From: a phage
DNA length: 64,000 nt
Reading direction: 5' to 3' (one strand)
Assembly: GCA_024683775.1 (NCBI GenBank)
Contig: GCA_024683775.1_4106.1
Shown: positions 1-16,081 of the stretch, piece by piece
Position numbering within the stretch: position 1 is the first letter of the stretch
Layout: each line of letters begins with the position of its first letter
Position numbers and translations under genes: made by a program
Notes under the pieces: model-generated
Database searches by the model: none
What the model saw: only the letters and a program-made list of their open reading frames with translations
Told to the model about the DNA's origin: nothing

Positions 1-79
1 TATATTATGCCAGTACTTGATAATGCTGTCAATACTTTTTTTTTACTATTCAGTACTGAAAACTATTTTTAAAAAGTAC

Positions 80-107
80 TTGTAAACTATGTTTAAAGGC
101 GTATAAT
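80..107 (+). promoter_or_regulatory. sigma70-like promoter (TTGTAA-16-TATAAT)
   Basis: -35/-10 hexamers read directly; first of two tandem promoters upstream of CDS 258. Confidence 0.6.
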
Positions 108-197
108 GTTTTACATCAGGACGGGGAACGAAATAAGTAACTTCCCGTTAAGTAGCCCAGGAGTAAGGCACACGAAAAACTCCCCTGATAAAATAGT

Positions 198-225
198 TTG
201 ACAATAGAAAGTAAAAGCGTATAAT
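198..225 (+). promoter_or_regulatory. sigma70-like promoter (TTGACA-16-TATAAT)
   Basis: Consensus -35 and -10 hexamers; about 30 nt upstream of CDS 258. Confidence 0.65.
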
Positions 226-257
226 ACTTACATCAACTACTGAATGAGGGTTACAAA

Positions 258-869
258 ATGAAAACTATCACTACTACTACTTTTGTTATGGCTTTTTCTG
301 AACTGAACGCAGAACAAAAAACGGCGGCTATCGAACTGGTTCGGGATCGTGAGCGTTCATGTGAGGATAATTTCTTTGCTGAGGGCGTTATCGAGTACTA
401 TAAAGAAACAGTACTACCAGAATACGGCATAGATGAAGCTGAATTGCAATACAGTGGTTTTTGGTCGCAAGGTGACGGTGCATCAATCAGTACTGACCAC
501 GTTGACGCAGTGAAGTTTTTACGCAAGGTAAGAGCATTAACTAAGTATCGCTCAATCCGTCACTTGCTGAATGAAGATGATTTGGCGATGAGTGTAGAAC
601 GTTCACACTCTCGCTACGCACACGAAAACACGGTAAGCGGGTACATTGAATCGGCTTACACTGATTTAACCGCAAAACAAGAAACGTTAGTTAATGAGCT
701 TGAGGAACTACTCACTGAAACTATTCGTGAATTGTCCCGCAAGTTGTACCGTGATTTAGAGAATGCATATGAGGATCAATTCACTACTGAAAACATTACG
801 GCACTGATTGAGGGTAACGAATATCAATTCAATGTTATTGATGGCGTAGTGGAATCAATCGAATATTAA
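258..869 (+). CDS. hypothetical protein (203 aa)
   Basis: Long ORF; tandem promoters and structured leader upstream; SD-like GAGGG before ATG. Confidence 0.75.
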   Translation: MKTITTTTFVMAFSELNAEQKTAAIELVRDRERSCEDNFFAEGVIEYYKETVLPEYGIDEAELQYSGFWSQGDGASISTDHVDAVKFLRKVRALTKYRSIRHLLNEDDLAMSVERSHSRYAHENTVSGYIESAYTDLTAKQETLVNELEELLTETIRELSRKLYRDLENAYEDQFTTENITALIEGNEYQFNVIDGVVESIEY

Positions 870-881
870 TTTAAAAAGTAC

Positions 882-909
882 TTGCAAACTAAGTTTAAAA
901 GCGTATAAT
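882..909 (+). promoter_or_regulatory. sigma70-like promoter (TTGCAA-16-TATAAT)
   Basis: Hexamers read directly; followed by leader hairpin GGCGGGGAATGGTTCCCCGC and RBS. Confidence 0.6.
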
Positions 910-959
910 ACTTTATATCGAGGCGGGGAATGGTTCCCCGCTCAAACGAGGATTTAAAA

Positions 960-1199
960 ATGGCTAGTACTAAAACTTACAACGGACACAAAAACAAAAC
1001 TCATTGGAATGTAAGCCTTTGGATTAATAACGGTGAGTCATTGTATCGGCTTGCACAAAGTTGCATCGCACAAAGTAGAACTAAAGATATTGCTGCGGAA
1101 TGTATGTACCGCAGATTAAAAGCCAACGGTACTACTACAACGCCGGACGGCTTTAAGTATAGCACTACTGCGATCCGTGCTGCAATGGTTGGAATGTAA
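960..1199 (+). CDS. hypothetical protein (79 aa)
   Basis: ORF; promoter, leader hairpin and SD upstream; start trimmed from track ORF 930 to ATG after SD. Confidence 0.7.
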   Translation: MASTKTYNGHKNKTHWNVSLWINNGESLYRLAQSCIAQSRTKDIAAECMYRRLKANGTTTTPDGFKYSTTAIRAAMVGM

Positions 1200-1256
1200 T
1201 ATTCAGTACTGAGATAATGGCGGGTAATAGTTCCCGCCTTTACTGAGGGTTATCTA

Positions 1257-1517
1257 ATGAGTAAAGTAATTAGCTATACAGCACTAAGCAAGACATTATC
1301 TATTAGCCAGTGCACCGATGGTTATTGGCTATTTGATGAAACGCGTGGCATGAATTTAGCCATGCGTGCAAAAACTGCTGAGGCGGCGTATCTTGAAGCA
1401 TTGGAATACTACCAGGAACGTTTAAAGGAAGTAGAAGAAGATTATAAAAGCCTCAAAGCGAAAGTAGATCATTTCGTCGGTCAATTCATCGAGGAAGACG
1501 ACGACAAACAATATTGA
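1257..1517 (+). CDS. hypothetical protein (86 aa)
   Basis: ORF; leader hairpin GGCGGGTAATAGTTCCCGCC and SD GAGGG upstream. Confidence 0.65.
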   Translation: MSKVISYTALSKTLSISQCTDGYWLFDETRGMNLAMRAKTAEAAYLEALEYYQERLKEVEEDYKSLKAKVDHFVGQFIEEDDDKQY

Positions 1518-1525
1518 AAAAGTAC

Positions 1526-1553
1526 TTGCAATTAGTTTTCAGTACTGTATAAT
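1526..1553 (+). promoter_or_regulatory. sigma70-like promoter (TTGCAA-16-TATAAT)
   Basis: Hexamers read directly; followed by leader hairpin and RBS. Confidence 0.6.
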
Positions 1554-1603
1554 GGTTTACATCAAAGGGAGAAATGGTTCTCCCTGGTAATGAGGAAAAT
1601 AAA

Positions 1604-1825
1604 ATGGCTAATATCACTACTCTTTCCCAACTGGAAGCACTGGTTAAATCTATGCGGGAACATGCCGACAAAATCGGCGTACAAGATCCAGCCGTTTGCT
1701 TCTGCGACGAATTGAATGATGATACCCTGGTAATAGCAGAAGTCCAGGACGTTTCTAACTATTCCTCGCGTTACACTGGCGGCGTAGCAAATAAAGGCGA
1801 CTTCTGTTTATACCTTACAAAATAA
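1604..1825 (+). CDS. hypothetical protein (73 aa)
   Basis: ORF; promoter, hairpin, SD AATGAGGAAA upstream; trimmed from track ORF 1574. Confidence 0.7.
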   Translation: MANITTLSQLEALVKSMREHADKIGVQDPAVCFCDELNDDTLVIAEVQDVSNYSSRYTGGVANKGDFCLYLTK

Positions 1826-1993
1826 CAACGCGGGGAGATAATAACTCCCCGTTACTTTTTCAGTACTGAATCATTTAATAGACGGATCTCGGCACCCGGT
1901 GGGTTAGTGACTGTTTCGTCTTGATGTAGTAATTATGCCAGTACTGGATGCACTTGTCAACAACTATTTTTCAAATACTTTTTATTAAAATAC

Positions 1994-2021
1994 TTGCAAT
2001 TAGTTTTTAAACGCGTATAAT
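1994..2021 (+). promoter_or_regulatory. sigma70-like promoter (TTGCAA-16-TATAAT)
   Basis: Hexamers read directly; followed by hairpin GGGGGAGCGGTTCCCC. Confidence 0.6.
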
Positions 2022-2068
2022 GTTTTGCATAGGGGGAGCGGTTCCCCTGGTAACTAAGGAATAATAAA

Positions 2069-2305
2069 ATGCTTGAACAAATCAAATCAACGTCTGCGAA
2101 TGTAACGGGAACGGTAGTACACTTTACTAGTGATGAATCGCGGGGTGTACCCTATTGTGCTGTACATGTAAACACTGAGGGTAACTACTGGTTTACGGTT
2201 TACGGATCATATTCATTTGGACGACCAGGGCATCAAAAAATTCTGGATAAAGTACAGCCAACGGGTAAAAATATCACTGCTGAAATGTTTTATAAAAAAT
2301 CATAA
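2069..2305 (+). CDS. hypothetical protein (78 aa)
   Basis: ORF; promoter, leader hairpin and SD AAGGAA upstream. Confidence 0.7.
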   Translation: MLEQIKSTSANVTGTVVHFTSDESRGVPYCAVHVNTEGNYWFTVYGSYSFGRPGHQKILDKVQPTGKNITAEMFYKKS

Positions 2306-2389
2306 AGTACTTGATAATAGTTTTTAGTACTGTATAATATTTTACATCGCAAGGGGGAGCGGTTCCCCCTGGTAACTAAGGATAATCAA

Positions 2390-2689
2390 ATGAAAATTAC
2401 AATCATCGCCCTGGCTTTATCTGTTTCCTCTTTCGCTGTTAATGCGTCATTAGATGTAAGTAGTGAAAAATTCATTCAGTGCACTGTTGCAATGACCGAT
2501 GAAAGTACTGGCGAGATTGTATTAAAGGATCTGGAGATTCAGCCGGAAGCATTTAAAAACGGCCCGTTCCATGAAGAAGACGAAAACGGTAGCACGACAA
2601 TTTATTATGATGCCAGTACTAAACGCGGTTCGGTCACTGTAATGGATACCGAGAAAGTAACTCATACCGGCGTTATTAATTGCCGTTGA
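2390..2689 (+). CDS. small secreted or periplasmic protein (99 aa, N-terminal signal-peptide-like segment)
   Basis: ORF; N-terminus MKITIIALALSVSSFAVNA is hydrophobic with an AxA-like end; promoter, hairpin, SD upstream. Confidence 0.65.
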   Translation: MKITIIALALSVSSFAVNASLDVSSEKFIQCTVAMTDESTGEIVLKDLEIQPEAFKNGPFHEEDENGSTTIYYDASTKRGSVTVMDTEKVTHTGVINCR

Positions 2690-2710
2690 TAGATACTACG
2701 GGGTAACATC

Positions 2711-2941
2711 ATGACTAAGCGAATTGTTTTACTTAACGAAAGCAGTACTACACAACTACTTAACGCCGTGCATTATGATATTGAAACGAGCGTTAATCTT
2801 ATCAGTACTGTCGTACTGTTGGACACTGGAAAGGTCGCCAATGATAAAGCGATTGCAGGTATACTAACGGATCTTGAGCCTGGTAGCAGTGCACCAATAA
2901 CGTTAAATGGTAAAGTGTTTAATATTTTACTCACTGATTAA
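2711..2941 (+). CDS. hypothetical protein (76 aa)
   Basis: ORF; SD-like GGGG before ATG; intrinsic terminator immediately downstream. Confidence 0.6.
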   Translation: MTKRIVLLNESSTTQLLNAVHYDIETSVNLISTVVLLDTGKVANDKAIAGILTDLEPGSSAPITLNGKVFNILLTD

Positions 2942-2947
2942 GTACAT

Positions 2948-2970
2948 AGCCCACCTGGTGGGCTTTTTTG
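2948..2970 (+). terminator. rho-independent terminator
   Basis: GC-rich hairpin AGCCCACC/GGTGGGCT followed by a T-run. Confidence 0.7.
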
Positions 2971-3174
2971 TTTTTGTAGTATCGTAGTACTGAGATACTT
3001 TGAAAATAGTTTTAAGAAAGTAGTTGACATTACCGCAGAAAAGCGTAGAATGTATTACATCAAGACGGGGAGCACTAAGTAGACCGCCAGTAAGTCGAAC
3101 GAAAAACTGGACACGTCGAGAAAACTTTGATACACTAATAAACGTAAACTAAACTTTAATTGAGGATTTATAAA

Positions 3175-3657
3175 ATGGCTAATGTAAAATCATTCATCAA
3201 AGCACTGGTAGCAAATGAAACTAACGTCGCGGCTGAGATCCTGGCTGAACTGGATAACGATACCATGAAAGCGGTACGCAATAATTTTAACATCGCGTAC
3301 AGTACTGCGAAAGAACTACAAGCAAATAAAGCGGCAGAAATTGAAGCGGCAAAGGCGGCCCGTGAAGCAGAACTACAAGCAACAATCGAAAGTATTCAGG
3401 CGGCAGTAGTTGGATTGGATCTGGAAGTAGTTACAGAGATGGCACAAAAAGCCCTGGCGGTTAAGTATGGGGAAGACAAGCCAGAAGTAAAAGCCAAAAA
3501 ATGGATTCAGGAACGCGTAGCGGTAGTACTGGACAACGGGGAAGAATATCTGATTCCGGTGCGTGGTAACTGCATTGCGGTAGTACTGGATGCGATTAAC
3601 TCCAGTGGTATGACTCGCGAGGAATGGATCAAAGCTCATCGCAAAGTTGAAGCATAA
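3175..3657 (+). CDS. hypothetical protein (160 aa, Ala/Glu-rich helical N-terminal half)
   Basis: ORF; SD TGAGGA upstream of ATG; trimmed from track ORF 3160. Confidence 0.7.
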   Translation: MANVKSFIKALVANETNVAAEILAELDNDTMKAVRNNFNIAYSTAKELQANKAAEIEAAKAAREAELQATIESIQAAVVGLDLEVVTEMAQKALAVKYGEDKPEVKAKKWIQERVAVVLDNGEEYLIPVRGNCIAVVLDAINSSGMTREEWIKAHRKVEA

Positions 3658-3678
3658 CAATTAAAGTACTGAATCACT

Positions 3679-3706
3679 AGCCCACTGTATAAGTGGGCTT
3701 TTTTGT
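3679..3706 (+). terminator. rho-independent terminator
   Basis: Hairpin AGCCCACT-GTATAA-GTGGGCT followed by a T-run. Confidence 0.75.
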
Positions 3707-3785
3707 GTTTATCGTTTACCATGCCACCAGCACCGCCTAGAAACGATTCTAACGCATTAAACTGATTATCTGATGCATTGCCCTA

Positions 3786-3793
3786 GCTGGTGG
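3786..3793 (+). other. Chi octamer GCTGGTGG
   Basis: Exact match read in sequence; paired with an inverted copy at 3724-3731. Confidence 0.8.
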
Positions 3794-3941
3794 CGTTAAG
3801 GCTGTAAGAACGCGATTGAGAGCGTTTAAAGTATTTTGCAAAAAGTAATAAAAAGTACTTGCACGATTAAGAGATTAGCGTATAATGTTTTACATCGAGA
3901 GGGGGAAACGGTTCTCCTTCCAAATCAAAGGAATTAAAACA

Positions 3942-4169
3942 ATGGCTATCGTAATCACTCGCGTAACTGGTACTACTGGCAATTCTTCTACTGTTGCTGT
4001 AATTACTAATAAGAAAGGTGCGGAATTGCATTTTGCAATGGATAAATGGGCCGTTAATGAGTTCGGTCAGTGGGCAAGTGTAGCATACATTGAAACCTAT
4101 CAAGTGCCGTCGATTAGTTTAACTGATTTGGGCGTTGAGCGTATCCTTTGCCTGGATGAATTAAATTAA
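3942..4169 (+). CDS. hypothetical protein (75 aa)
   Basis: ORF; promoter, hairpin GGGGGAAACGGTTCTCC and SD upstream; track start 3885 lies in the -10 box. Confidence 0.7.
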   Translation: MAIVITRVTGTTGNSSTVAVITNKKGAELHFAMDKWAVNEFGQWASVAYIETYQVPSISLTDLGVERILCLDELN

Positions 4170-4255
4170 AAAAGTACTTGCAAAGTAAATCAGATAAAGT
4201 ATAATACATTACATCAAGGGGAGAAATGGTTCTCCCTGATAATGAGGAAACTAAT

Positions 4256-4399
4256 ATGAAAACTTGTCAATGTGGTAAAAAATCTATTACTGGTTTAAAG
4301 CGGGGCGTTGCACTTTGCCAGTACCATTATAATTTACAAGTATGGGGTAAAGAATGGGCCGACCAGGTGGAAGCAGCAAAGAAAGCAAAAAGTAAGTAA
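4256..4399 (+). CDS. hypothetical small Cys-containing protein (47 aa)
   Basis: Short ORF not in track; promoter, hairpin GGGGAGAAATGGTTCTCCCC and SD AATGAGGAAA upstream. Confidence 0.5.
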   Translation: MKTCQCGKKSITGLKRGVALCQYHYNLQVWGKEWADQVEAAKKAKSK

Positions 4400-4417
4400 A
4401 ATATTATCACAGTACTA

Positions 4418-4446
4418 TTGACATAGTTTGATAGTACTGGCATAAT
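4418..4446 (+). promoter_or_regulatory. sigma70-like promoter (TTGACA-17-CATAAT)
   Basis: Hexamers read directly; the same cassette recurs near 7260, 7520 and 15450. Confidence 0.6.
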
Positions 4447-4489
4447 AGATTTTATCAAGACGACACATATTAATTTAAGGAATACTAAA

Positions 4490-4813
4490 ATGGCTAAAAC
4501 TATCATTAACACCGTTTCCCTGGCTGCAATCCGTGCAATCAATGTTGACGGTAAACGTTGGACTGATTCATATGGCAATACTTATCATTCTTGTCATGTA
4601 AGCGTTGAACTGGATAACGGTTTGAATGATCTGGCGGTTGAATCATTTACTTATGGCTATGAAGATGCATATCAACAAACGGCGTTAGATCTCTTAAAGG
4701 AATCAGTAGACGGGCTTAATACTGATGACACCTCCCTTACTCGTTTGTGCAATGATCTTAATATCCCGTTGCATTGTACTGTACAGAATGTTAAACGCAA
4801 AAAAGATCTTTAA
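4490..4813 (+). CDS. hypothetical protein (107 aa), paralog of CDS 10978
   Basis: ORF; shares RWTDSxGNTYHSC and FTYGY motifs and C-terminal KRKKD with CDS 10978. Confidence 0.7.
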   Translation: MAKTIINTVSLAAIRAINVDGKRWTDSYGNTYHSCHVSVELDNGLNDLAVESFTYGYEDAYQQTALDLLKESVDGLNTDDTSLTRLCNDLNIPLHCTVQNVKRKKDL

Positions 4814-4893
4814 TTAGCTTTACTTTATGCAGATACTTTGATATAGTGTCTGCATAGGGGAAAGAAATTAAATTAACTTAAGAGGAACGTATA

Positions 4894-5163
4894 ATGAAAA
4901 ATATCAGTACTTTAATCGACGCAGGTACACATGTTCGGCGGTCTATGGTTGCAACCAGTACTACAAAACAAGTACCAAGCGGTTATCTTGTATTTGTGCA
5001 CGATGGTAAACTCCTGGAACGTTCAATCAATTTTGATGTTAAAAACAATTGCCGTTTTATTATCTTTAAGCGTGAGCAATATAAAATTGATTTACCAGCA
5101 AAGCCCATAAGCGGGGCGTACAACGTGCAATCATTGTTTGAACGTCAACCATACACCTATTAA
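4894..5163 (+). CDS. hypothetical protein (89 aa)
   Basis: ORF; SD AAGAGGAA upstream. Confidence 0.65.
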   Translation: MKNISTLIDAGTHVRRSMVATSTTKQVPSGYLVFVHDGKLLERSINFDVKNNCRFIIFKREQYKIDLPAKPISGAYNVQSLFERQPYTY

Positions 5164-5214
5164 TCAAAACATCGTTAGCGGTCGATTTAGGCCGCTTATA
5201 TTGGGGATTATACC

Positions 5215-5487
5215 ATGAACGTTAATCAAGTACTGAATGAGATCGAAAGCATCATTAAACCGATGAAGCGTACTGATGCTATGTTAACACCGGAAGAATG
5301 CCGCCTTTATGAGCGTTACAGCGTCGAACAAGTCCAGGCGATGGCTATGGCTACCCCAGCCGTTAAACCGCCTGAGAATGCGTTACAGGACGTTACAGGG
5401 GATTATATCATCAATCCAGTACTAGGGAAGATGGCTGCAATCACCGAAGATCAACAAGACTACTTAAGCCAGTACTTAAAAGGTTAA
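5215..5487 (+). CDS. hypothetical protein (90 aa)
   Basis: ORF; SD-like GGGG before ATG. Confidence 0.6.
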   Translation: MNVNQVLNEIESIIKPMKRTDAMLTPEECRLYERYSVEQVQAMAMATPAVKPPENALQDVTGDYIINPVLGKMAAITEDQQDYLSQYLKG

Positions 5488-5492
5488 TTAAT

Positions 5493-5702
5493 ATGCTTAC
5501 TGTACAGGATAAGATCGACATCTTAAAGGTTAATATGTATGTGATTGATGCAGTACCTGGTAAAGTATTTGCATACGATGACAGTACTGTAAGCGATTTC
5601 TACTATAGCCAGGCCGTGGGGGATCTTTCTGTACAGTCGGTTATTGAAAACGTAGTTAATGCAGCGTATGAGCATTTACTTTCAAATAGTACTTGCAATT
5701 AG
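5493..5702 (+). CDS. hypothetical protein (69 aa)
   Basis: ORF 5 nt after previous stop; likely co-translated. Confidence 0.55.
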   Translation: MLTVQDKIDILKVNMYVIDAVPGKVFAYDDSTVSDFYYSQAVGDLSVQSVIENVVNAAYEHLLSNSTCN

Positions 5703-5771
5703 TTTTTAAACGCGTATAATGTTTTACATGAAGGGGAGAAATGATTCTCCCCACTAATTAAGGAATATGAA

Positions 5772-5918
5772 ATGAAAGCATCAAAAAAGAGTACTAACAA
5801 GAAAGCACGTTCAACCTTAGATGGGGTATTCCCTTTACGTTTCGTTGATGAAGTAGTTTCCTACCCGCCGGGCCTTACTCCTGAGATGGTAGAAAGTTTG
5901 CGTAAATCTAAAAAATAG
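5772..5918 (+). CDS. hypothetical small basic protein (48 aa)
   Basis: Short ORF not in track; promoter, hairpin and SD AAGGAA upstream. Confidence 0.5.
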   Translation: MKASKKSTNKKARSTLDGVFPLRFVDEVVSYPPGLTPEMVESLRKSKK

Positions 5919-5999
5919 TACTTGCAATTAGTTTTTAGTACTGTATAATGTTTTACATGAAGGGGAGAAATGATTCTCCCCAATAACAGGAGAAACAAA

Positions 6000-6152
6000 A
6001 TGAAACAATACAACGCTCGGTTTGATGTTACTATCGGTAACGGCAAAGGTCAATTCTCTTTCAGTACTCGCAAAAGTTATACAGAAAACTTCCTGCGTAA
6101 TTGTGCACTGACCGCCGCTCAAATTAAACATTATTTTCAGGCTAAAAAATGA
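6000..6152 (+). CDS. hypothetical protein (50 aa)
   Basis: ORF; promoter, hairpin, SD AGGAGA upstream; trimmed from track ORF 5970. Confidence 0.6.
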   Translation: MKQYNARFDVTIGNGKGQFSFSTRKSYTENFLRNCALTAAQIKHYFQAKK

Positions 6153-6238
6153 GATCATTAGCTTATTACAGTTCGGCCCTGGTCGGTGCATTGATCGCGG
6201 CGTTGTTAGTAACCTATCTATTCTTTATGGTGATTTAA
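6149..6238 (+). CDS. possible hydrophobic peptide (29 aa)
   Basis: ATGA overlap with previous stop; single hydrophobic helix; very short, so speculative. Confidence 0.3.
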   Translation: MRSLAYYSSALVGALIAALLVTYLFFMVI

Positions 6239-6382
6239 ATGAATCCAACAGGTTTAAACTATAAAAGTTGTTCGGCGTTTACGAAAGCAAATAAAGCGAA
6301 TGCACGTAAAGCGAAAGTACAGGAATACATCAAGCAAGGCATGACGCGAAAGGCGGCGATTCTAAAAGCTAAAAATAAATGA
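6239..6382 (+). CDS. hypothetical small basic protein (47 aa)
   Basis: Short ORF directly after previous stop; Lys/Ala-rich; terminator downstream. Confidence 0.4.
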   Translation: MNPTGLNYKSCSAFTKANKANARKAKVQEYIKQGMTRKAAILKAKNK

Positions 6383-6384
6383 AA

Positions 6385-6478
6385 AAAGTGGTTGACTCCG
6401 GTCAGCCATTTTGCTATTATATATTCATTGAGAGATAGCTCACTAGCCCACAGGGTGCATAAGTGTATCTATTATATG
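6385..6478. repeat. composite intergenic repeat, copy 1
   Basis: Terminator hairpin (6389-6414) overlapping TTGACT-17-TATTAT, then conserved box CCCACAGGGTGCATAAGTGTATCT; similar copies at about 10025, 13310, 16082. Confidence 0.7.
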
Positions 6479-6593
6479 AGTATTGAGTACTGAAAACTAT
6501 TTGATAAAAAGTACTTGCAAACTATCTCAATAAGCGTATAATGTTTTACATCGAAAGGGGAAACGGTTTCCCCTGGTAATAAGGAAACGAATC

Positions 6594-6935
6594 ATGACTA
6601 TCTCAATTGCTCAATCTAACTTTGAAAATGAAATCATCGCCCAGGCACTGCGTTTAAATGATGGTCGGGCCGAAATTAATTACGGTTTCAATTCAGGCGG
6701 TTGCGAAAACTATCAGTACTTTGTAACGGCTGATGGCGGTGTCCTGGGTATCAATACAGTTATTGTAAACATCCAAAAAATTAATTTCAATGATCCAGAC
6801 GATAGCCAGTTTTACATCACTGGCGTAGACGTGAACTATGAGGATGACTCACTAACTGATGATTACACTGGCGAGCGGTTAGAAAGTGCATACGGTGAAG
6901 ATGATTATCAGTCCGGTCCAGAAGATTTCGAATAA
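6594..6935 (+). CDS. hypothetical acidic protein (113 aa)
   Basis: ORF; promoter, hairpin GGGGAAACGGTTTCCCC and SD upstream. Confidence 0.7.
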   Translation: MTISIAQSNFENEIIAQALRLNDGRAEINYGFNSGGCENYQYFVTADGGVLGINTVIVNIQKINFNDPDDSQFYITGVDVNYEDDSLTDDYTGERLESAYGEDDYQSGPEDFE

Positions 6936-7028
6936 TATAAAAAAATAGTTTGACAATAGATTATAGTACTGTATAATGTTTTACATGAAGGGGAGAATAG
7001 TTCTCCCCACTAACAGAGAGAAAACAAA

Positions 7029-7241
7029 ATGGCTAATATCTGCACTGTACTGAAAAATGCAAAACAAGTTTTATTTTCTGATCACGATCATTTAAACAAG
7101 GATATTACTGGCGTTCGGAATATCAAAGATGTAAAAAGTGTTATGGGTATCTATTGCAATATGAAACGTGTCGGCACGTTCGGCGATAAAGTACTATACC
7201 AGGCAGGGGATTACAATTTTACACTGACTATCATTAACTAA
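7029..7241 (+). CDS. hypothetical protein (70 aa)
   Basis: ORF; promoter TTGACA...TATAAT, hairpin and SD upstream. Confidence 0.7.
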   Translation: MANICTVLKNAKQVLFSDHDHLNKDITGVRNIKDVKSVMGIYCNMKRVGTFGDKVLYQAGDYNFTLTIIN

Positions 7242-7324
7242 AAATATTATCACAGTACTATTGACATAGTTTTATAGTACTGACATAATAACTTTTATCA
7301 ACTACACTACTAAGGAATTAAAAA

Positions 7325-7504
7325 ATGGCTATCATCGCAAAAACTGAAATCGTTGGTCTGGATTCTATCATCATGACGTTTGAAGATCAAAAAGGTATGT
7401 ATGTAGTTTCATATGGTGATTATGTTCGGGAGTATGAAACGGTAGACGAAGCCTTTGAAAGTTATATTCGCCAGGTGAATAAAGCATACGACGACTACCG
7501 CTAA
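7325..7504 (+). CDS. hypothetical protein (59 aa)
   Basis: ORF not in track; type-III promoter and SD AAGGAA upstream. Confidence 0.55.
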   Translation: MAIIAKTEIVGLDSIIMTFEDQKGMYVVSYGDYVREYETVDEAFESYIRQVNKAYDDYR

Positions 7505-7594
7505 AATATATTACCAGTACTATTGACATTGTTTGATAGTACTGTATAATAAGTTTTATAAACAGTAGTTAACTTAACCTAAGAGAGAAATAAA

Positions 7595-7738
7595 ATGATC
7601 GCACTGGATTCATTCATCGACGCAGTACTGGCAAAAACTGGCGAGGATCTGACCGCAGAACAATACGCGATGATCGAGCAATGTCAGCAAAACGGTAAAT
7701 CGGTGAAAGATACTGTTAAGATTATCCGCAAGATGTAA
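7595..7738 (+). CDS. hypothetical protein (47 aa)
   Basis: ORF not in track; promoter and SD AAGAGAGA upstream; hairpin downstream. Confidence 0.5.
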   Translation: MIALDSFIDAVLAKTGEDLTAEQYAMIEQCQQNGKSVKDTVKIIRKM

Positions 7739-7759
7739 TATTATAGCCCACTGGTTAAC

Positions 7760-7767
7760 GCTGGTGG
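7760..7767 (+). other. Chi octamer GCTGGTGG
   Basis: Exact match inside the hairpin after CDS 7595. Confidence 0.8.
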
Positions 7768-7837
7768 GCTATAATCATTTACCCTATACAATGCCAGTAC
7801 TCAACCGTTTATCTCGTTAGAATGCGTTACAGGACGT

Positions 7838-8041
7838 TTGACAATGATTAGCATGAAATCAGTACAAAAACAAATAGAAACATTATCAAAAATTAAACGT
7901 AAACAGTACTCGTTAGAATATACAATCAATGGTAACTATCATCTAATGAAAGAGAATAATTTCATTGTCATTGATGAATCATTGCAAGTTATTAGTATAG
8001 TACTGAAAGCATTAATCAATGACAGAAAAAAATTAAAATAA
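7838..8041 (+). CDS. hypothetical protein (67 aa)
   Basis: ORF only; no clear promoter cassette or SD. Confidence 0.35.
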   Translation: MTMISMKSVQKQIETLSKIKRKQYSLEYTINGNYHLMKENNFIVIDESLQVISIVLKALINDRKKLK

Positions 8042-8268
8042 TCTATTGACAATATCCTCCAGTACTGGCATAATACTTACATCAAGACGAGAACGTCACT
8101 AACCCATAGGGTGCACAAATGTAACTATATAATATCGATCAATAAATGATCAAAAAGTACTGGATCAATTTAGCATAAGGCGTATAATTCTGATCAATTC
8201 TTGATCAAAGGCAATATACGCAGTTGAATTTATATAGACAGTACAAAGGCGTTACTATCCGTGGTAAT

Positions 8269-8276
8269 GCTGGTGG
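8269..8276 (+). other. Chi octamer GCTGGTGG
   Basis: Exact match read in sequence. Confidence 0.8.
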
Positions 8277-8369
8277 ATATGTAGTATCATATGGTTTGAA
8301 TAAGATAAACACTAGTAGTATTATTGTAGCATTACAGTACTATAGTATTTTTATAATGAGGTTAAAATA

Positions 8370-8627
8370 ATGGCAGTAGGATACGCGAAAGACGGGGCCG
8401 AACAAGACGAGATTCACGCAGTGATTCAGGCAGCCGTTAACCACGCTAGAAAGCAAATTAACGCACAAAGAGAATCACTGGTACATTGCCTCGACTGCGG
8501 CGATAAAATCCCTGAGAATCGACGCCAGGCCGTTATAGGGTGCATGTATTGTATTACTTGCCAGGAGGATCATGATAGTACTTTTAAAAGAGATCCGCGT
8601 AATTGTTGGCATAGATCTATGAGATAA
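8370..8627 (+). CDS. TraR/DksA-family C4 zinc-finger protein (85 aa)
   Basis: CxxC-17-CxxC spacing (CLDCG...CMYCITC) near the C-terminus as in TraR/DksA proteins; SD TGAGG upstream. Confidence 0.7.
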   Translation: MAVGYAKDGAEQDEIHAVIQAAVNHARKQINAQRESLVHCLDCGDKIPENRRQAVIGCMYCITCQEDHDSTFKRDPRNCWHRSMR

Positions 8628-8690
8628 AAAGTATTGACAGTACTGAAAGATAGTGTATAATGTTTTATATCTTAACTGAGGATAGTAATC

Positions 8691-9047
8691 ATGGGAATAC
8701 AACATATCACGCGTACTACTGACAATGGCGAGATCACTGGTTATCAGGTACAGGGCAAAGTAGCACAATTGCAGTACTGGTTTGTTAAACGTGGAATCAT
8801 TGCACCGGATCTTGATTATGACCGTGTAGCGTTTATTGATTCTCTTTATGTTGATCCTGATAGTCGGGGCAATGGTGAAGGTAACGAATTAATGAATGCC
8901 TTTATTGATGCCGCCGATGATTCAGATTGTATCATCTTAGAATGCGATACGGGAGAAGATAACGCCTTTAATCTTAAAGAATGGTACGAAGGTTTCGGAT
9001 TCGAGGTACTGATCGATAGTGAATATCCTATCATGATTTTATCATAG
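8691..9047 (+). CDS. GNAT-family N-acetyltransferase-like protein (118 aa)
   Basis: Motif LYVDPDSRGNGEGNELMNAFI resembles the GNAT acetyl-CoA binding motif A; promoter and SD upstream. Confidence 0.6.
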   Translation: MGIQHITRTTDNGEITGYQVQGKVAQLQYWFVKRGIIAPDLDYDRVAFIDSLYVDPDSRGNGEGNELMNAFIDAADDSDCIILECDTGEDNAFNLKEWYEGFGFEVLIDSEYPIMILS

Positions 9048-9125
9048 TACTTGCATTTAGTTTTCAGTACTGTTATAGTACTTGCATCAAGGGGAAACAT
9101 CTTCCCCTACTAAGAGGAAATAAAA

Positions 9126-9314
9126 ATGGAAAACTTATCAAGTATTTTAGTACAAGATGATTTCGGTAATCCTGGAAGTGCTATCATTGTTCGGGGCAAT
9201 AAAGCAACGTTTGTTATTGCTGGTGGACCCGTACAGCGTAGCATTAAAAATAATGCTGTTACCATTAATAATGTACGCTATCGCTTAGATAAAGAATTAA
9301 TTCATAAACTGTAA
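9126..9314 (+). CDS. hypothetical protein (62 aa)
   Basis: ORF; hairpin GGGGAAACATCTTCCCC and SD AAGAGGAAA upstream; contains a Chi octamer. Confidence 0.65.
   Translation: MENLSSILVQDDFGNPGSAIIVRGNKATFVIAGGPVQRSIKNNAVTINNVRYRLDKELIHKL
9219..9226 (+). other. Chi octamer GCTGGTGG
   Basis: Exact match read in sequence. Confidence 0.8.
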
Positions 9315-9399
9315 AAAAGTACTGGACAATAGATTATAGTACTGTATAATAGTTTACATGAAGGGGAGAAATGATTCTCCCCACTAAGAGGAAAGAAAA

Positions 9400-9612
9400 A
9401 TGCAAGGTCAACTAATCGTTCGTAAATGGTCTGATACTAACGAAAAACCGTGGGATGTACAATACATCGCCCCAAATGGTGAATCCAGATATCAACCAGG
9501 TGTAACGCATAGTACTGAGCAATTCGCCGCCGCTCATCGCGAACGTCTGTTACAATCAATGCAGCACGGTTCCGGTGAAAAATTCATTCAGGATCATTGG
9601 CTGAAAGATTAA
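9400..9612 (+). CDS. hypothetical protein (70 aa)
   Basis: ORF; promoter, hairpin GGGGAGAAATGATTCTCCCC and SD upstream. Confidence 0.7.
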   Translation: MQGQLIVRKWSDTNEKPWDVQYIAPNGESRYQPGVTHSTEQFAAAHRERLLQSMQHGSGEKFIQDHWLKD

Positions 9613-9698
9613 AAAGTACTTGCACAGTACTGAATAAAGTGTATAATGTTTTATATCGGAAGGGGAATAGTTCCCCTCCTAACAAAGAGGAAAGTATA

Positions 9699-9872
9699 AT
9701 GGTCCAGGTAGAATTAACAGTACTGAAAGATCTGTTTTATCGGATTGGTACTACTGGCGAATATCCGAAGGGTGATAATGCAAAACTTTACGTATCACTC
9801 GACTTATGGCAACGCGAACAATTAGCAACGGCCTGGCGTAAAGGCAAAGCAGATAGCGAGGTGAAAGCATGA
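9699..9872 (+). CDS. hypothetical protein (57 aa)
   Basis: ORF; promoter, hairpin and SD AAGAGGAAA upstream; trimmed from track ORF 9597. Confidence 0.6.
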   Translation: MVQVELTVLKDLFYRIGTTGEYPKGDNAKLYVSLDLWQREQLATAWRKGKADSEVKA

Positions 9873-10018
9873 AAGAATTCTTATTTGAAGTAGTGTTTCA
9901 AGGTGTCGGTAATAACCAACTGATTCGATCAAGTGGTTATAATGTTAACCAGGCATGGAATAACATTAAACAAATGTACCCGAACGCTATCACATATCGC
10001 AACCCGAAAGAAGTTTAA
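9869..10018 (+). CDS. hypothetical protein (49 aa)
   Basis: ORF not in track; ATGA overlap with previous stop. Confidence 0.45.
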   Translation: MKEFLFEVVFQGVGNNQLIRSSGYNVNQAWNNIKQMYPNAITYRNPKEV

Positions 10019-10024
10019 AAATAA

Positions 10025-10112
10025 TTGAAAAAGGGATTGACTCCGGTCAGTCCCTTTGCTATTATATACGCATAGAAACAAATTAGCCCACCGGGTGCAT
10101 AAATGTATCTAT
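10025..10112. repeat. composite intergenic repeat, copy 2
   Basis: Terminator hairpin AAAGGGATTGAC-TCCG-GTCAGTCCCTTT overlapping TTGACT-17-TATTAT, then conserved box CCCACCGGGTGCATAAATGTATCT. Confidence 0.7.
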
Positions 10113-10117
10113 TGTTT

Positions 10118-10125
10118 GCTGGTGG
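10118..10125 (+). other. Chi octamer GCTGGTGG
   Basis: Exact match just downstream of repeat copy 2. Confidence 0.8.
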
Positions 10126-10166
10126 CTAGTACTATCAAGTACTGAAAACTATTTTTAAAAAAGTAC

Positions 10167-10194
10167 TTGCAAAGTATCACGATAAGCGTATAAT
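10167..10194 (+). promoter_or_regulatory. sigma70-like promoter (TTGCAA-16-TATAAT)
   Basis: Hexamers read directly; upstream promoter of a duplicated double-promoter leader. Confidence 0.6.
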
Positions 10195-10282
10195 GTTTTA
10201 CATCAGGACGGGGAACGAAATAAGTAACCCCGTTAAGTAGTCCAGGAGTAAGACATACGAAAAACTCCCCTGATAAAATAGT

Positions 10283-10310
10283 TTGACAATAGAAAGTAAA
10301 CGAGTATAAT
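10283..10310 (+). promoter_or_regulatory. sigma70-like promoter (TTGACA-16-TATAAT)
   Basis: Consensus hexamers; about 30 nt upstream of CDS 10344. Confidence 0.65.
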
Positions 10311-10343
10311 ACTTACATCAACCACTGATAAGGAAACATTAAA

Positions 10344-10619
10344 ATGCGGACTTTACTTACAGCTAACGAAATCGAGCAAGTACTGACTACTAATCTGGAA
10401 CAATGGAAACGTGAAGCAGATATCCAGGCGGTTCAATGCCTTAACGATAAGTTAACGCCAGATGACTTAAGCACGATTGTTGATCCACAATTTTATGAAG
10501 ATATTCACGACACGTCTTTAAGCGTCGAGGATGTACTTGATAAGCACTACATTGATACTGATTTACATGTTTACGGTCGTAAAAACTTTATCACTATTCA
10601 CGACATTTACAATACTTAA
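10344..10619 (+). CDS. hypothetical acidic protein (91 aa)
   Basis: ORF; double-promoter leader and SD AAGGAA upstream. Confidence 0.7.
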   Translation: MRTLLTANEIEQVLTTNLEQWKREADIQAVQCLNDKLTPDDLSTIVDPQFYEDIHDTSLSVEDVLDKHYIDTDLHVYGRKNFITIHDIYNT

Positions 10620-10707
10620 GTATTGACAAAGTATCTTAGTACTGTATAATAGTTTACATCAAGTGAGGGGAAACGGTTCCCCTCCTAACAAAGAGAGAGA
10701 AATTAAA

Positions 10708-10890
10708 ATGGCTAAGTGCACTATCTGTAAGAAAGAAATCGTATTAGTTCCAAGTGCCCGTGAACGTGCCGCTCGGTTCGGTGGCAAAGCGTCAGACTAT
10801 ACAAAAATGTTTACTGCCCATGCAGCTTGTCAAGTAGCAAAACGTTCACAAGAAAGCGTAGAATTAATGCGTAAACTTTCCAAAAAATAA
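10708..10890 (+). CDS. hypothetical protein (60 aa, CxxC plus HxxC)
   Basis: ORF; promoter, hairpin and SD upstream; trimmed from track ORF 10663. Confidence 0.65.
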   Translation: MAKCTICKKEIVLVPSARERAARFGGKASDYTKMFTAHAACQVAKRSQESVELMRKLSKK

Positions 10891-10977
10891 GTATTGACAA
10901 AGTATCTTAGTACTGTATAATAGTTTACATCAAGCGAGGGGAATGGTTCCCCTCCTAACAAAGAGAGAGAAATAAAA

Positions 10978-11301
10978 ATGGCTATGATCCTTACCCAGAA
11001 AGTAGAACTGAAAATTGTAACCTCCTTTGACATTAAAGTTAATCGGTGGACTGATAGCCACGGCAATACTTACCACTCCTGCTACGTGTCCGCATTGATT
11101 GGTGATCGCTGGGAAGACCTGGGACACGAAACCTTTACATACGGTTACGGCACACAAGGTGAGTACACGGGTTTAGAAATCATTAAGGAAACTGTAATAG
11201 GTTTCAACCCGAAAGAGAAAGTACTACACAGAATTGAGAAAGAGATCAACAAAGAAATTACAGTTCGCTACTACGATGTAAAACGTAAGAAAGACATGTA
11301 A
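10978..11301 (+). CDS. hypothetical protein (107 aa), paralog of CDS 4490
   Basis: ORF; upstream cassette almost identical to that of CDS 10708; shares motifs with CDS 4490. Confidence 0.7.
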   Translation: MAMILTQKVELKIVTSFDIKVNRWTDSHGNTYHSCYVSALIGDRWEDLGHETFTYGYGTQGEYTGLEIIKETVIGFNPKEKVLHRIEKEINKEITVRYYDVKRKKDM

Positions 11302-11400
11302 TAGAATCCATTTAAAGTACTATTTGACATTGCCCAGATAGTACTTTATAATAGACTCTAACTTGTAGTACTAATTAACTTAACTAATAGGATGTACACC

Positions 11401-11796
11401 ATGATTACTAAATTCTTCGCTACCCGTGAACAAGCTCGCATCGTTGCCCGTGAGGAAGGTGAAACATTTAAAGACATGGGTAAAGATTCTCCTACTGGTA
11501 AACGCTGGGCGGTACAGTTCAAAGAGATCTCTGATATTGTGAATTCACCTGAGCCTGTACTTACAGCAGCAGAACTAAAGCAAGCTCAAGAACTGGCTGA
11601 AGTACTGAACGCTCAAGATGACTTCTTGAAAGGTTCTGATATTGAAGTTACAGTTAACGCAAATGCATGGACTCACGCGGATCACCTGGCAAACCTTAAG
11701 CGTCCAAGTGAACTGATTCGCAACCAGAAAGAGATCCGACACGACCGTAAGGGTAATCGTGTAACAGTATACAGTAAACGCCGCCAGGTTATCTAA
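11401..11796 (+). CDS. hypothetical protein (131 aa)
   Basis: ORF; promoter TTGACA...TATAAT upstream; start chosen at second ATG after AGGA. Confidence 0.65.
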   Translation: MITKFFATREQARIVAREEGETFKDMGKDSPTGKRWAVQFKEISDIVNSPEPVLTAAELKQAQELAEVLNAQDDFLKGSDIEVTVNANAWTHADHLANLKRPSELIRNQKEIRHDRKGNRVTVYSKRRQVI

Positions 11797-11818
11797 TAAC
11801 TTGCAGTACTAACAACAC

Positions 11819-11843
11819 GGCGGGATCAGTTCCCGCCTTTTTT
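11819..11843 (+). terminator. rho-independent terminator
   Basis: Hairpin GGCGGGA-TCAG-TTCCCGCC followed by TTTTTT. Confidence 0.75.
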
Positions 11844-11857
11844 ATAGGACAAACAAA

Positions 11858-12112
11858 ATGATTAAGGTTCAACTATATAAAGATAACATCTTACGGGTAC
11901 ACTATAAAGCACCTCAGAGAATCATCACAAAGGCCGTACAGCTTGCTAATGAGTTTATTAATGGTAACCTATTACCTAGGAAGTTAAGCAACGGGAAACT
12001 GCGTGTAATCGACGTGGACACTAACAACAGGATAGTAATCGAGAACACAGGAAAGATAAACCTTTATGAGCATCAACAATACAATAAGAAAATAAAACTA
12101 ATATCACGTTGA
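11858..12112 (+). CDS. hypothetical protein (84 aa)
   Basis: ORF; SD-like sequence upstream. Confidence 0.6.
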   Translation: MIKVQLYKDNILRVHYKAPQRIITKAVQLANEFINGNLLPRKLSNGKLRVIDVDTNNRIVIENTGKINLYEHQQYNKKIKLISR

Positions 12113-12165
12113 CAGTACTCAATTGTTTTAGTACTATGTACACATACCAACACGGGAGAAACAAA

Positions 12166-12384
12166 ATGAAATTATCTAAAATCGAAAAGAAAACTATTGA
12201 TGAAGCAGTTAAGCACGGTTATACCTTTCGTAATGATTCACATTTTACCAATTTTCAACAAGGGTATCGTACTATTAAAAAACTAATTGACAAAGGTTTA
12301 TTAGTTGAAGTCAATAACGGTAACGGTATCGAGTATCAACCAACACAAGACGCATTTTATTTTAAGAAATATAATATTATCTAA
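12166..12384 (+). CDS. hypothetical protein (72 aa)
   Basis: ORF; promoter and SD GGGAGAAA upstream; trimmed from track ORF 12109. Confidence 0.65.
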   Translation: MKLSKIEKKTIDEAVKHGYTFRNDSHFTNFQQGYRTIKKLIDKGLLVEVNNGNGIEYQPTQDAFYFKKYNII

Positions 12385-12442
12385 TTGACAGTACTCAATT
12401 GTTTTAGTATTATGTACACATACCAACACGGGGGGAAACAAA

Positions 12443-12685
12443 ATGATTACTTTAGAAAAACGTATCAAAGAAACTACATCGCTGGTGGAACTGTTAACAG
12501 TACTCAAATGTAAAACAACACCATTCAGCACGCCGGACTTTATTAATATGGTTGATGTTAATGGTCGCTATCGTATCACGGTCGAACAAGGAGCGGCGAA
12601 AGTATTCAGTACTAAAAACACTAAGGAAGTGATCCACGCCGTTAATGTTAAAAAAGTAGTTGCCATTGATAGTAAAGTACTGTAA
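12443..12685 (+). CDS. hypothetical protein (80 aa)
   Basis: ORF; upstream about 60 bp is a near-identical copy of the region upstream of CDS 12166. Confidence 0.65.
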   Translation: MITLEKRIKETTSLVELLTVLKCKTTPFSTPDFINMVDVNGRYRITVEQGAAKVFSTKNTKEVIHAVNVKKVVAIDSKVL

Positions 12686-12716
12686 TATAGTTTCATTAAC
12701 TCAAGGAGAACATGCA

Positions 12717-13301
12717 ATGCGTAAATATACTAAATTCATCCGTACACTGTCAGAAATGGAAACCAACAAAGAGATCCTTTCAGCTTGTCGGTTAGCTGGC
12801 CTGGAGATCATCGGTGCTGGTTCTTCCCGTATAGTATTCGCTTTAAATGATCGGTTAGTGATTAAGGTCGCGAATTGTGATGCGGGTGTCGAACAAAATG
12901 AAACTGAATGTAAGGTATGGAATTTTTTAGACTATGACCGCCCTCAGTTGAAACAGTACTTTGCAAAGGTGCATATGCATTTATGCGATCCTGATAATAT
13001 GTTTATCGTTATGGATCGGTTGAGTACTGCAAGCAAAGGCAGTGTGAAGCACGTAAACGCGTGCAATGAATTAAAGTACAATATTAAACGTAATGCAATC
13101 GAACGCCAGCACCGCTTTGCTGATGCACTACAACACGTTGATGATACATTATCAACACTAACGATAAGAGATATCAGAAAACAGAATATCGGCCAGGATC
13201 GTAATGGACTTATTAAAGTACTTGATTACGGTTTAACCAGCAATATCTGGAATCAGTACTATAAAAAGCGTGATGTGGCAGCAAGTAAGGTAACACGATA
13301 A
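12717..13301 (+). CDS. protein-kinase-like protein (194 aa)
   Basis: Gly-rich loop IGAGSSRIVF, VIKVA lysine, catalytic-loop-like RDIRKQNIG and DFG-like VLDYG in the expected order; SD AAGGAGAA upstream; trimmed from TTG-start track ORF 12660. Confidence 0.6.
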   Translation: MRKYTKFIRTLSEMETNKEILSACRLAGLEIIGAGSSRIVFALNDRLVIKVANCDAGVEQNETECKVWNFLDYDRPQLKQYFAKVHMHLCDPDNMFIVMDRLSTASKGSVKHVNACNELKYNIKRNAIERQHRFADALQHVDDTLSTLTIRDIRKQNIGQDRNGLIKVLDYGLTSNIWNQYYKKRDVAASKVTR

Positions 13302-13309
13302 AAAAGATT

Positions 13310-13400: not shown

Positions 13401-13525
13401 TATATAAGTATTCAGTACTGAAAACTATTTGATAAAAAGTACTTGCAAACTATCTCAATGAGCGTATAATGTTTTATATCGAGAGGGGGAAATGGTTCTC
13501 CCTGGTACTAAAAGGAATCAAGACG

Positions 13526-16057: not shown

Positions 16058-16081
16058 CAAAAAAGAATAAAAAAAGGGATT

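Follow-up and report, generated by a model that had tools for sequence, protein, structure and literature searches.

Chi-dense terminal regions have been described in phages P1, P7, D6 and NGUA22, and it was proposed for the P1 group that the sites allow RecBCD entering from either end to recombine the terminal repeats or circularize the DNA (Subramaniam and Smith, bioRxiv 10.1101/2021.07.08.451572). In lambdoid phages of the LLS class, 20 of 23 Chi sites are placed in the active orientation and clustered at the genome's right end, and their activity has been measured (PMC12315714). RecBCD enters DNA at a double-strand end and recognizes 5′-GCTGGTGG-3′ solely when approaching it from the 3′ side (PMC12315714); therefore, a Chi on the top strand acts on the enzyme coming from the right, and a top-strand CCACCAGC on the enzyme coming from the left. 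Past Chi, the degradation of the 3′-ended strand stops and RecA is loaded. Here we analyze a stretch of phage DNA of 64,000 nucleotides (nt) (contig GCA_024683775.1_4106.1 of the GenBank assembly GCA_024683775.1; hereafter the window), in which two Chi octamers in opposite orientation, at positions 3724 and 3786, had been noticed in a preliminary description made from the sequence alone. We found that they are part of a larger feature, an oriented array of Chi sites under selection which runs through the terminal repeat of enterobacterial jumbo phages of the Rak2-like clade. In this feature the arm at 3786 (top-strand GCTGGTGG, orientation +) is a conserved member of the array, while the arm at 3724 (top-strand CCACCAGC, orientation −) is a dispensable back-up.

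The window is 96-98% identical to Asteriusvirus jumbo coliphages (the 121Q / PBECO4 / vB_Ec-M-J group, approx. 350 kilobases (kb)). Its position 1 corresponds to position 3617 of vB_Ec-M-J, so the window begins approx. 3.6 kb inside a direct terminal repeat (DTR) of approx. 21 kb. In the vB_Ec-M-J record the DTR is annotated at 1-21525, and the final 21,525 bases are identical to this segment; by homology, the end of the repeat falls near position 17,545 of the window. Similar lengths have been given for Sharanji (20,668 bp, determined with PhageTerm) and fEgEco12 (20,993 bp), with the termini of the latter confirmed by restriction digests. The DNA of fEgEco12 yielded the predicted patterns with every restriction enzyme used, which argues against heavy modification, although this is not a direct test of its readability by RecBCD. 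The authors of that study proposed circularization through the repeats; the repeats are covered in the publications on Sharanji, fEgEco12, CBB and PA5oct, none of which brings up Chi or RecBCD in that context. All close relatives are phages of Escherichia or Salmonella, from which the host of the window's own phage is deduced, and the octamer is the presumed Chi throughout the Enterobacteriaceae.

Both arms of the pair proved to be exact Chi octamers in opposite orientation, as had been claimed, and the inverted repeat that they form extends to a perfect match of 9/9 (GCCACCAGC at 3723-3731 and GCTGGTGGC at 3786-3794). The spacer between the octamers, originally given as 55 nt, is 54 nt long. 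The placement of the pair directly after a terminator and before the next promoter was also borne out, by a terminator stem with its T-run on one side and by the promoter boxes TTGCAC (3859-3864) and TATAAT (3881-3886), separated by 16 nt, on the other.

The analysis of octamer counts revealed how unusual the surroundings of the pair are. The window contains 12 Chi octamers; shuffling that preserves dinucleotides predicts 0.40, and not one of 100 shuffled sequences had as many as 12. Ten of them lie in the DTR part, for which Markov models of orders 1-4 predict 0.2-0.4, and these comprise nine + sites and a single − site, the one at 3724; the remaining 46 kb hold just two (55888, − and 63956, +). 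For a comparison of repeat and unique DNA we used the whole genome of vB_Ec-M-J, assembled from its record. Each copy of its DTR carries 11 Chi (0.51/kb), whereas the unique DNA, 335.5 kb in length, holds 23 (0.069/kb), which is a 7.5-fold difference in density (binomial P = 3e-6), and the Markov expectation for the DTR (orders 1-4) is 0.2-0.44.

The sites of the DTR differ from the others also in their location. Seven of the 11 are non-coding, though just 35% of the DTR is non-coding (0.93/kb versus 0.29/kb in coding DNA). In the unique region only two of 23 Chi are intergenic; nearly all are coding, those on the + strand mostly in the sense frame GCT-GGT-GGN (Ala-Gly-Gly), and they represent the ordinary background of codon usage. 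The enrichment in the repeat is specific to the exact octamer: Chi ranks first among 168 octamers of identical composition (11 copies versus a mean of 0.38), and its 24 one-mismatch variants are depleted (six in the DTR versus 263 in unique DNA, 0.36-fold). Neither a flanking consensus or extended motif around the DTR sites nor a fixed spacing to promoters was found. The + orientation prevails in the DTR of vB_Ec-M-J (9/11, P = 0.065).

The conservation of the array was analyzed in two ways. In an alignment of 14 Asteriusvirus genomes the + arm of the pair (3786) is invariant, and it is also present in EJP2, whose upstream DNA is unrelated. The − arm (3724) is intact in eight of these 14 genomes; it reads CCACTAGC in five (SHEFM2K, UB, slurp01, A4 and Sharanji) and CCGTCAGC in 121Q, and the position-wise majority of the three variants suggests that the intact octamer is ancestral. 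The complement of the commoner variant, GCTAGTGG, was reportedly the most active Chi-like sequence in the work of Cheng and Smith in the 1980s. In an alignment of five DTRs, a + Chi site is on average retained by 3.56 of the four relatives, compared with 2.57 for random octamers (P = 0.009), and seven of nine + sites are kept in all four, compared with 31% of octamers. The + array is thus under purifying selection. The focal − arm is selected at best weakly.

The preliminary description had suggested looking for other paired Chi sites in the genome, and the relatives do contain a second pair of the form CCACCAGC-N4-GCTGGTGG, located approx. 0.5-0.6 kb from the left end. In vB_Ec-M-J it reads CCACCAGC-acaa-GCTGGTGG (588/600) and falls within the leftmost 1.7 kb of the genome, a non-coding segment outside the window. 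The same left-terminal palindrome is common to Sharanji, 121Q and fEgEco12 (578/590 in the latter). In fEgEco12, whose ends have been verified experimentally, Chi sites are found at 578 (−), 590 (+), 6619 (−) and 6681 (+), together with eight further + sites, and none is present in the 9 kb that follow the repeat.

This palindrome spans 588-607 in vB_Ec-M-J, 578-597 in fEgEco12, 484-503 in fENko-Kae01 and Munch, and 13654-13673 and 14026-14045 in the records of Sharanji and 121Q; its 4-nt loop flips between genomes. vB_Ec-M-J has acaa, while Sharanji, 121Q and fEgEco12 have ttgt and fENko-Kae01 and Munch have ttaa; in the CMSTMSU record (approx. 14267) the loop is partly deleted. The flipped loop is a signature of inversion or template switching within the palindrome. 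A scan of IMG/VR for CCACCAGC-N4-GCTGGTGG, intended as a test of generality, was uninformative, since the 46 loci came mostly from GC-rich contigs or were ordinary terminator hairpins; 121Q was the sole locus from this clade.

The same layout was observed in phages that share essentially no alignable DNA with the window (fENko-Kae01, Munch and CBB; a single 50-nt promoter match), and an average nucleotide identity of approx. 29% has been published for the Munch/Kae01 group. In the Klebsiella phage fENko-Kae01 there are 14 Chi, all within the PhageTerm-defined DTR (1-19736), 12 in + and two in − orientation, and none in the next 8.2 kb. The Salmonella phage Munch carries 13 in its first 20.9 kb and none in the 18 kb that follow, and the Pectobacterium phage CBB has nine in its 22.5-kb repeat (7+/2−), with three in the next 27.5 kb. 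Both fENko-Kae01 and Munch contain the palindrome CCACCAGC-ttaa-GCTGGTGG at 484/496. The relative PA5oct, which infects Pseudomonas and has a similar G+C content, served as a negative control: there are no Chi octamers in its 39-kb DTR, nor in the next 11 kb.

The array is polar relative to the genome ends. Counted from the left, the first Chi of the repeat is a − site in each of the enterobacterial lineages (588, 578, 484, 484 and 3514), despite − sites being only two of 9-14, and the product of the chances of this over three genera is 0.006. The rightmost Chi of the repeat is a + site, 0.4-1.4 kb from the right end. A second − Chi occurs approx. 7 kb from the left end in fENko-Kae01 (7013) and Munch (7138), where it is coding and not tightly paired; the distance is similar in Asteriusvirus (7402 in vB_Ec-M-J and 6619 in fEgEco12).

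Taken together, the exact octamer is enriched, confined to the repeat, mostly non-coding, conserved within the genus and polar in orientation, and this layout recurs in non-homologous genera. In our view both focal arms are likely to be genuine Chi sites, members of an array of approx. 11-12 sites packed by selection into the DTR of approx. 21 kb. Judging from sequence and position, these oriented sites probably stop RecBCD that enters at either genome end and so tame the host nuclease. With respect to the termini mapped in relatives, the − arm is directed towards the left end and the + arm towards the right end.

The injected linear genome would expose two free double-strand ends, each with its own repeat copy. 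From the right end, RecBCD would run leftwards into the series of + sites, the first of them 0.4-1.4 kb in; from the left end, it would run rightwards into the − Chi at approx. 0.6 kb, which is half of the left-terminal palindrome. The focal − arm, approx. 6.6-7.4 kb in, would be a back-up for the left-end enzyme, standing beside the second-innermost + site. At Chi, destruction of the 3′ strand would halt and RecA would be loaded, so that the loss would be limited to redundant repeat. Since the − sites are found left of the + sites, overlapping complementary 3′ tails should be preserved on both processed ends, and these may recombine repeat with repeat, giving a circle or a concatemer, or prime recombination-dependent replication. 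The order "− then +" would be the sole one that leaves an overlap of tails, and the reverse order would leave none; by this inferred geometry, a tight CCACCAGC...GCTGGTGG pair would be the limiting case, with an overlap of approx. 80 nt for the focal pair.

Proteins by which phages evade RecBCD were also sought. No homologues of T4 gp2, lambda Gam or T7 gp5.9 were detected by tblastn in the whole vB_Ec-M-J genome and the window (best E-values 0.58 to 9.5, compared with 5e-11 for the gp4 control). Though a weak negative, this fits the reported link between an abundance of Chi and the lack of anti-RecBCD genes.

Several observations weigh against the proposed role of the array in end protection. 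The geometric argument does not explain the asymmetry between two − sites and 9-12 + sites. According to the vB_Ec-M-J annotation, the phage has recombination proteins of its own, among them UvsX and UvsY as well as a gp46/47-like nuclease and endonuclease VII, and thus may not need RecBCD for recombination, and more than 80% of its genes have no assigned function, so that a RecBCD inhibitor could be hidden among them. The termini of the window's own phage are placed by homology, and the left-terminal pair lies outside the window. The focal − arm has decayed in six of 14 relatives, i.e. it is dispensable, and it is kept in two of four relatives in the DTR alignment, which is no better than neutral; the invariance of the + arm in itself proves little, because the whole surrounding block is conserved. 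The + bias is partly expected, since the genes of the DTR without exception run on the + strand and Chi in coding sequence favors the sense frame. Finally, tracking of the host's Chi is only half demonstrated: in the PA5oct DTR (1-39080) the proposed Pseudomonas Chi, GCTGGCGC, is not enriched (one copy), and no strand-polar GC-rich octamer stands out there. PA5oct contains an array of neither octamer, so any anti-RecBCD DNA signal in that phage must be a different motif.

Three of the alternatives that we considered deny that Chi is the signal. That the array is a by-product of base composition or of codon usage (GCT GGT GGN for Ala-Gly-Gly) is barely credible. Most Chi in the unique 335 kb are indeed in-frame GCT-GGT-GGN on the sense strand, and the same frame is found in four of the window's five coding DTR sites, but both focal arms and seven of 11 DTR sites are non-coding, an order-4 Markov model predicts 0.44 copies against 11 observed, and the one-mismatch variants are depleted. 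For the non-coding sites this explanation was therefore rejected. It is highly improbable that the inverted repeat acts as an RNA hairpin (a second terminator, or an element for processing or stability) or as a DNA hairpin or cruciform, with its identity to Chi incidental. The predicted fold does pair the arms, mildly beyond shuffles (RNA −28.7 kcal/mol, z = −2.7; DNA −13.1 kcal/mol, z = −2.6), and the left-arm substitutions, C to T and A to G, preserve G-U wobble pairing in + strand RNA, with 93.7% of the alignment cells pairable. However, such tolerance is the default in a C/A-rich arm, in which seven of eight possible transitions would be compatible anyway. Covariation, counted by pairs on the 14-genome alignment, does not exceed that of shuffles (420/500 do as well); a double change occurs once, in isolation, in 8/14 genomes the ninth pair (G...C) is broken, and changes in the − arm are never compensated in the + arm, so a conserved RNA hairpin is not supported. 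A scan of positions 3500-4100 against Rfam found nothing on the pair, and a sub-threshold Trp_leader match (3642-3706) is merely the upstream terminator. Placement 3′ of a strong terminator and 5′ of the next promoter also speaks against a structural role in RNA, a 9-bp stem with a 54-nt loop would make a poor cruciform, and ten other Chi octamers as well as the cross-genus arrays would be left unexplained. The long RNA hairpin put forward in the preliminary description was accordingly not upheld; of its other proposal, a two-way Chi site, what stands is the presence of exact opposed octamers inside a Chi-loaded terminal repeat, with the qualification that the − arm is dispensable and that activity is deduced. 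We also regard it as quite improbable that the octamer is the binding site of a phage factor (for packaging, a replication origin or early transcription) which matches the host Chi by accident. The octamers are confined to the DTR, which is both the packaging end and the immediate-early region, and several adjoin terminators or promoters. Yet it is the exact host Chi that is found in three genera whose hosts share that Chi, and the octamer is missing from the DTR of PA5oct. The sites moreover lack a flanking consensus and a fixed promoter spacing, are both coding and non-coding, and follow a strand pattern that is polar relative to the genome ends.

The other alternatives accept the Chi array and differ in what is selected. 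A lesser but real possibility is that the + array alone is functional, the − arm at 3724 being neutral or nearly so beside a selected + Chi, and the pair being functionless as a unit. The − arm mutates without consequence for the + arm, its conservation (2/4) is at or below the random-octamer mean, a single − site within 62 bp of any of nine + sites is only modestly unlikely by chance (P approx. 0.05), and the second − site is not tightly paired in fENko-Kae01, Munch and CBB. On the other hand, a GC-rich exact octamer is very unlikely in AT-rich intergenic DNA (0.2-0.4 expected per whole DTR, both strands), in vB_Ec-M-J and fEgEco12 each of the two DTR − sites has a + partner that close (P approx. 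0.003), another genus also has its second − Chi approx. 7 kb from the left end, and the intact − octamer appears to be ancestral. It is rather doubtful, though conceivable, that the array is an obligatory device for the start of infection, in which RecBCD and RecA acting at oriented Chi join the 21-kb repeats or prime replication; similarly doubtful is the corollary that the order "− then +", including the tight CCACCAGC...GCTGGTGG pairs, has been selected to guarantee overlapping 3′ tails. If this were true, the whole enterobacterial Rak2-like jumbo clade would be RecBCD-dependent, like P1 and LLS. Finally, it is unlikely that RecBCD stops at Chi but that the benefit consists in fewer products for the acquisition of CRISPR spacers, or in titration or inactivation of RecBCD, instead of repeat recombination. 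According to Levy et al. in 2015, Chi is said to limit spacer acquisition, and an encounter with Chi reportedly inactivates RecBCD (Kuzminov et al. in 1994, Taylor and Smith in the 1990s). The array does sit where RecBCD would start, at both ends, and a phage with its own recombinase set may have no need of RecA loading; but the sequence does not separate such a benefit from end protection and recombination, and the benefits are not mutually exclusive. Given the phage's own recombination proteins, the main benefit may be simple protection of the early-gene region, or inactivation of the cell's few RecBCD molecules, rather than RecA loading.

The coordinates of the pair, of its flanking signals and of the other array members are summarized below.

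Table 1. Chi sites and associated features of the terminal-repeat part of the window.
Feature	Position	Strand	Remarks
DTR portion within the window	1..17545	.	Right boundary deduced from homology to vB_Ec-M-J
Intrinsic terminator of the upstream gene	3679..3706	+	Stem AGCCCACT/AGTGGGCT at 3679-3699, then T-run
Chi octamer, top strand CCACCAGC	3724..3731	−	Exact match; one of just two − Chi in the DTR
Spacer between the Chi arms, AT-rich, 54 nt	3732..3785	.	Varies among relatives; 12-nt deletion in Sharanji
Chi octamer GCTGGTGG	3786..3793	+	Exact match; left-most + array member of the window
Early sigma-70-type promoter of the downstream gene, AAAAAGTACTTGCAC-N16-TATAAT	3854..3886	+	One of 17 copies
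Chi, intergenic, overlaps 3′ arm of a terminator hairpin	7760..7767	+	Kept in 4/4 relatives
Chi in a small open reading frame (frame GCT GGT GGA), lineage-variable	8269..8276	+	Kept in 1/4; present in fEgEco12
Chi, coding (frame GCT GGT GGA)	9219..9226	+	Kept in 4/4
Chi, intergenic, directly upstream of an early promoter	10118..10125	+	Kept in 4/4
Chi, coding (frame G CTG GTG G)	12481..12488	+	Kept in 4/4
Chi, coding (frame GCT GGT GGA)	14386..14393	+	Kept in 4/4
Chi, coding (frame GCT GGT GGA)	15965..15972	+	Kept in 3/4
Chi, intergenic, right-most in the array	16188..16195	+	Approx. 1.36 kb from the deduced right end of the DTR; kept in 4/4

The focal pair lies between a gene for a protein of 160 amino acids (aa), which ends at 3657, and a gene for a protein of 75 aa, which starts at 3942. 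Comparison with PHROGs and Pfam of the genes flanking the pair, and of the neighbors of a gp4-like head-closure gene, identified only proteins of unknown function or virion structural proteins.

Several + Chi are parts of terminator-like hairpins, the 3′ arm of which overlaps GGTGG (e.g. AGCCCACtggttaacGCTGGTGGGCT); this was seen at 7745-7770 and 10084-10127 of the window. In another genus, too, the loop tggttaac stands directly before a Chi (fENko-Kae01 19354, Munch 20913). Terminator arms may have been the raw material for the evolution of Chi in these phages. Beyond the repeat, the − site at 55888-55895 of the window stands alone in an intergenic position; it is also kept in vB_Ec-M-J, at 59909, where it is one of the two intergenic Chi in the 335-kb unique region.

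The repeat is also distinct in its gene organization. An extended early promoter, AAAAAGTACTTGCA-N17-TATAAT-GTTTTACATC, occurs in 17 copies in the window, all of them in the first 16.7 kb, i.e. in the terminal-repeat part (75, 877, 1521, 2306, 3854, 4173, 5688, 5917, 6510, 9615, 10162, 13438, 13747, 14241, 14792, 15128 and 16637). Each is followed by a conserved short leader hairpin (e.g. GGGGAGAAAtGGTTCTCCCC) and a Shine-Dalgarno site. Because these 17 promoter-leader units are confined to the repeat, the latter can be regarded as a set of monocistronic immediate-early units; RNA-seq of PA5oct has shown that its DTR genes are early. The repeat part is moreover enriched 1.7-fold in the palindrome AGTACT, with positions 1-17545, or 27% of the window, holding 116 of its 249 copies; the palindrome is found in the promoters and also scattered as CAGTACTG. 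The DNA that follows the repeat (approx. 17.6-26 kb of the window, corresponding to 21.6-30 kb of vB_Ec-M-J) is organized differently: it contains a run of approx. 40 overlapping open reading frames of 65-85 aa with 4-bp overlaps, without individual promoters or terminators, and looks like an array of paralogous small genes.

The principle of Chi sites at phage ends is already known, and the case described here is an independent, clean and experimentally tractable one for direct selection of Chi. Our literature search, which was incomplete, found no report of such an array for Asteriusvirus, 121Q, PBECO4, RaK2, jumbo phages or DTRs. Direct evidence that Chi is selected as a signal, and is not a by-product of codons, is scarce and has come so far mainly from P1-like and some lambdoid phages. 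In the present phages the genome is AT-rich, so that a GC-rich octamer should hardly occur, and the array has a sharp boundary at the exact end of the repeat. Its sites are mostly non-coding, three genera share the layout without alignable DNA, and a non-enteric relative is devoid of the array. These observations bear on how a linear genome of 350 kb with exposed ends survives RecBCD in the first minutes of infection, and on whether the host enzyme serves circularization or the start of replication. Use of these phages in therapy has been proposed, for which the rec genotype of the host and engineering of the repeat could matter.

Known systems resemble this locus to different degrees. Like T5, these phages have a long exact DTR with small monocistronic early genes under strong host-type promoters, but the resemblance is only architectural. 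The phages T4 (gp2), lambda (Gam) and T7 (gp5.9) face the same problem, RecBCD at the free ends of phage DNA, and solve it with proteins and not with a DNA signal. Chi-flanked linear DNA is used for gene replacement and for cell-free expression, and Chi reportedly protects both linear DNA and rolling-circle DNA of E. coli cells (Dabert et al. in 1992, Kuzminov et al. in 1994). Near each end, and facing the incoming enzyme, such engineered molecules carry CCACCAGC on the left and GCTGGTGG on the right of the top strand, which is the layout seen across the two repeat copies; in the phage, however, the arrangement is natural and multiplied, with 9-12 sites on one side.

The closest counterparts remain the LLS-class and P1-like phages. 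Features of terminally clustered Chi arrays were found here, namely an end density of Chi far above that of the rest of the genome (also in fENko-Kae01, Munch and CBB) and a bias of orientation, with a leftmost − and a rightmost + site. As in LLS phages, in which approx. 7:1 of the sites are in the active orientation, Chi is clustered at the genome end and would benefit the phage; LLS phages have no recognizable anti-RecBCD gene, and for the present phages the homologue search gave the weak negative described above. The LLS phages are cos phages of 40-50 kb with neither a terminal repeat nor a recombination module, and their RecBCD-enhanced growth has been measured, whereas the present cluster is located within a terminal repeat that is duplicated, also contains opposed sites facing the other end, and is accompanied by the phage's own recombinase. 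As in P1, Chi is concentrated at the terminal redundancy of the linear DNA, and in P1 non-coding DNA is as dense in Chi as coding DNA. P1 is a temperate phage that packages by headful from pac, so that its variable ends are spread over 20-40 kb, with Chi nearly randomly oriented. The dependence of P1 on RecA and RecBCD is experimental, whereas the phage of the window is known from its sequence and has UvsX and UvsY. In contrast to P1, the phage described here is a virulent 350-kb myovirus with a fixed, exact repeat of approx. 21 kb, at whose boundary the Chi array stops and within which it is polar in orientation.

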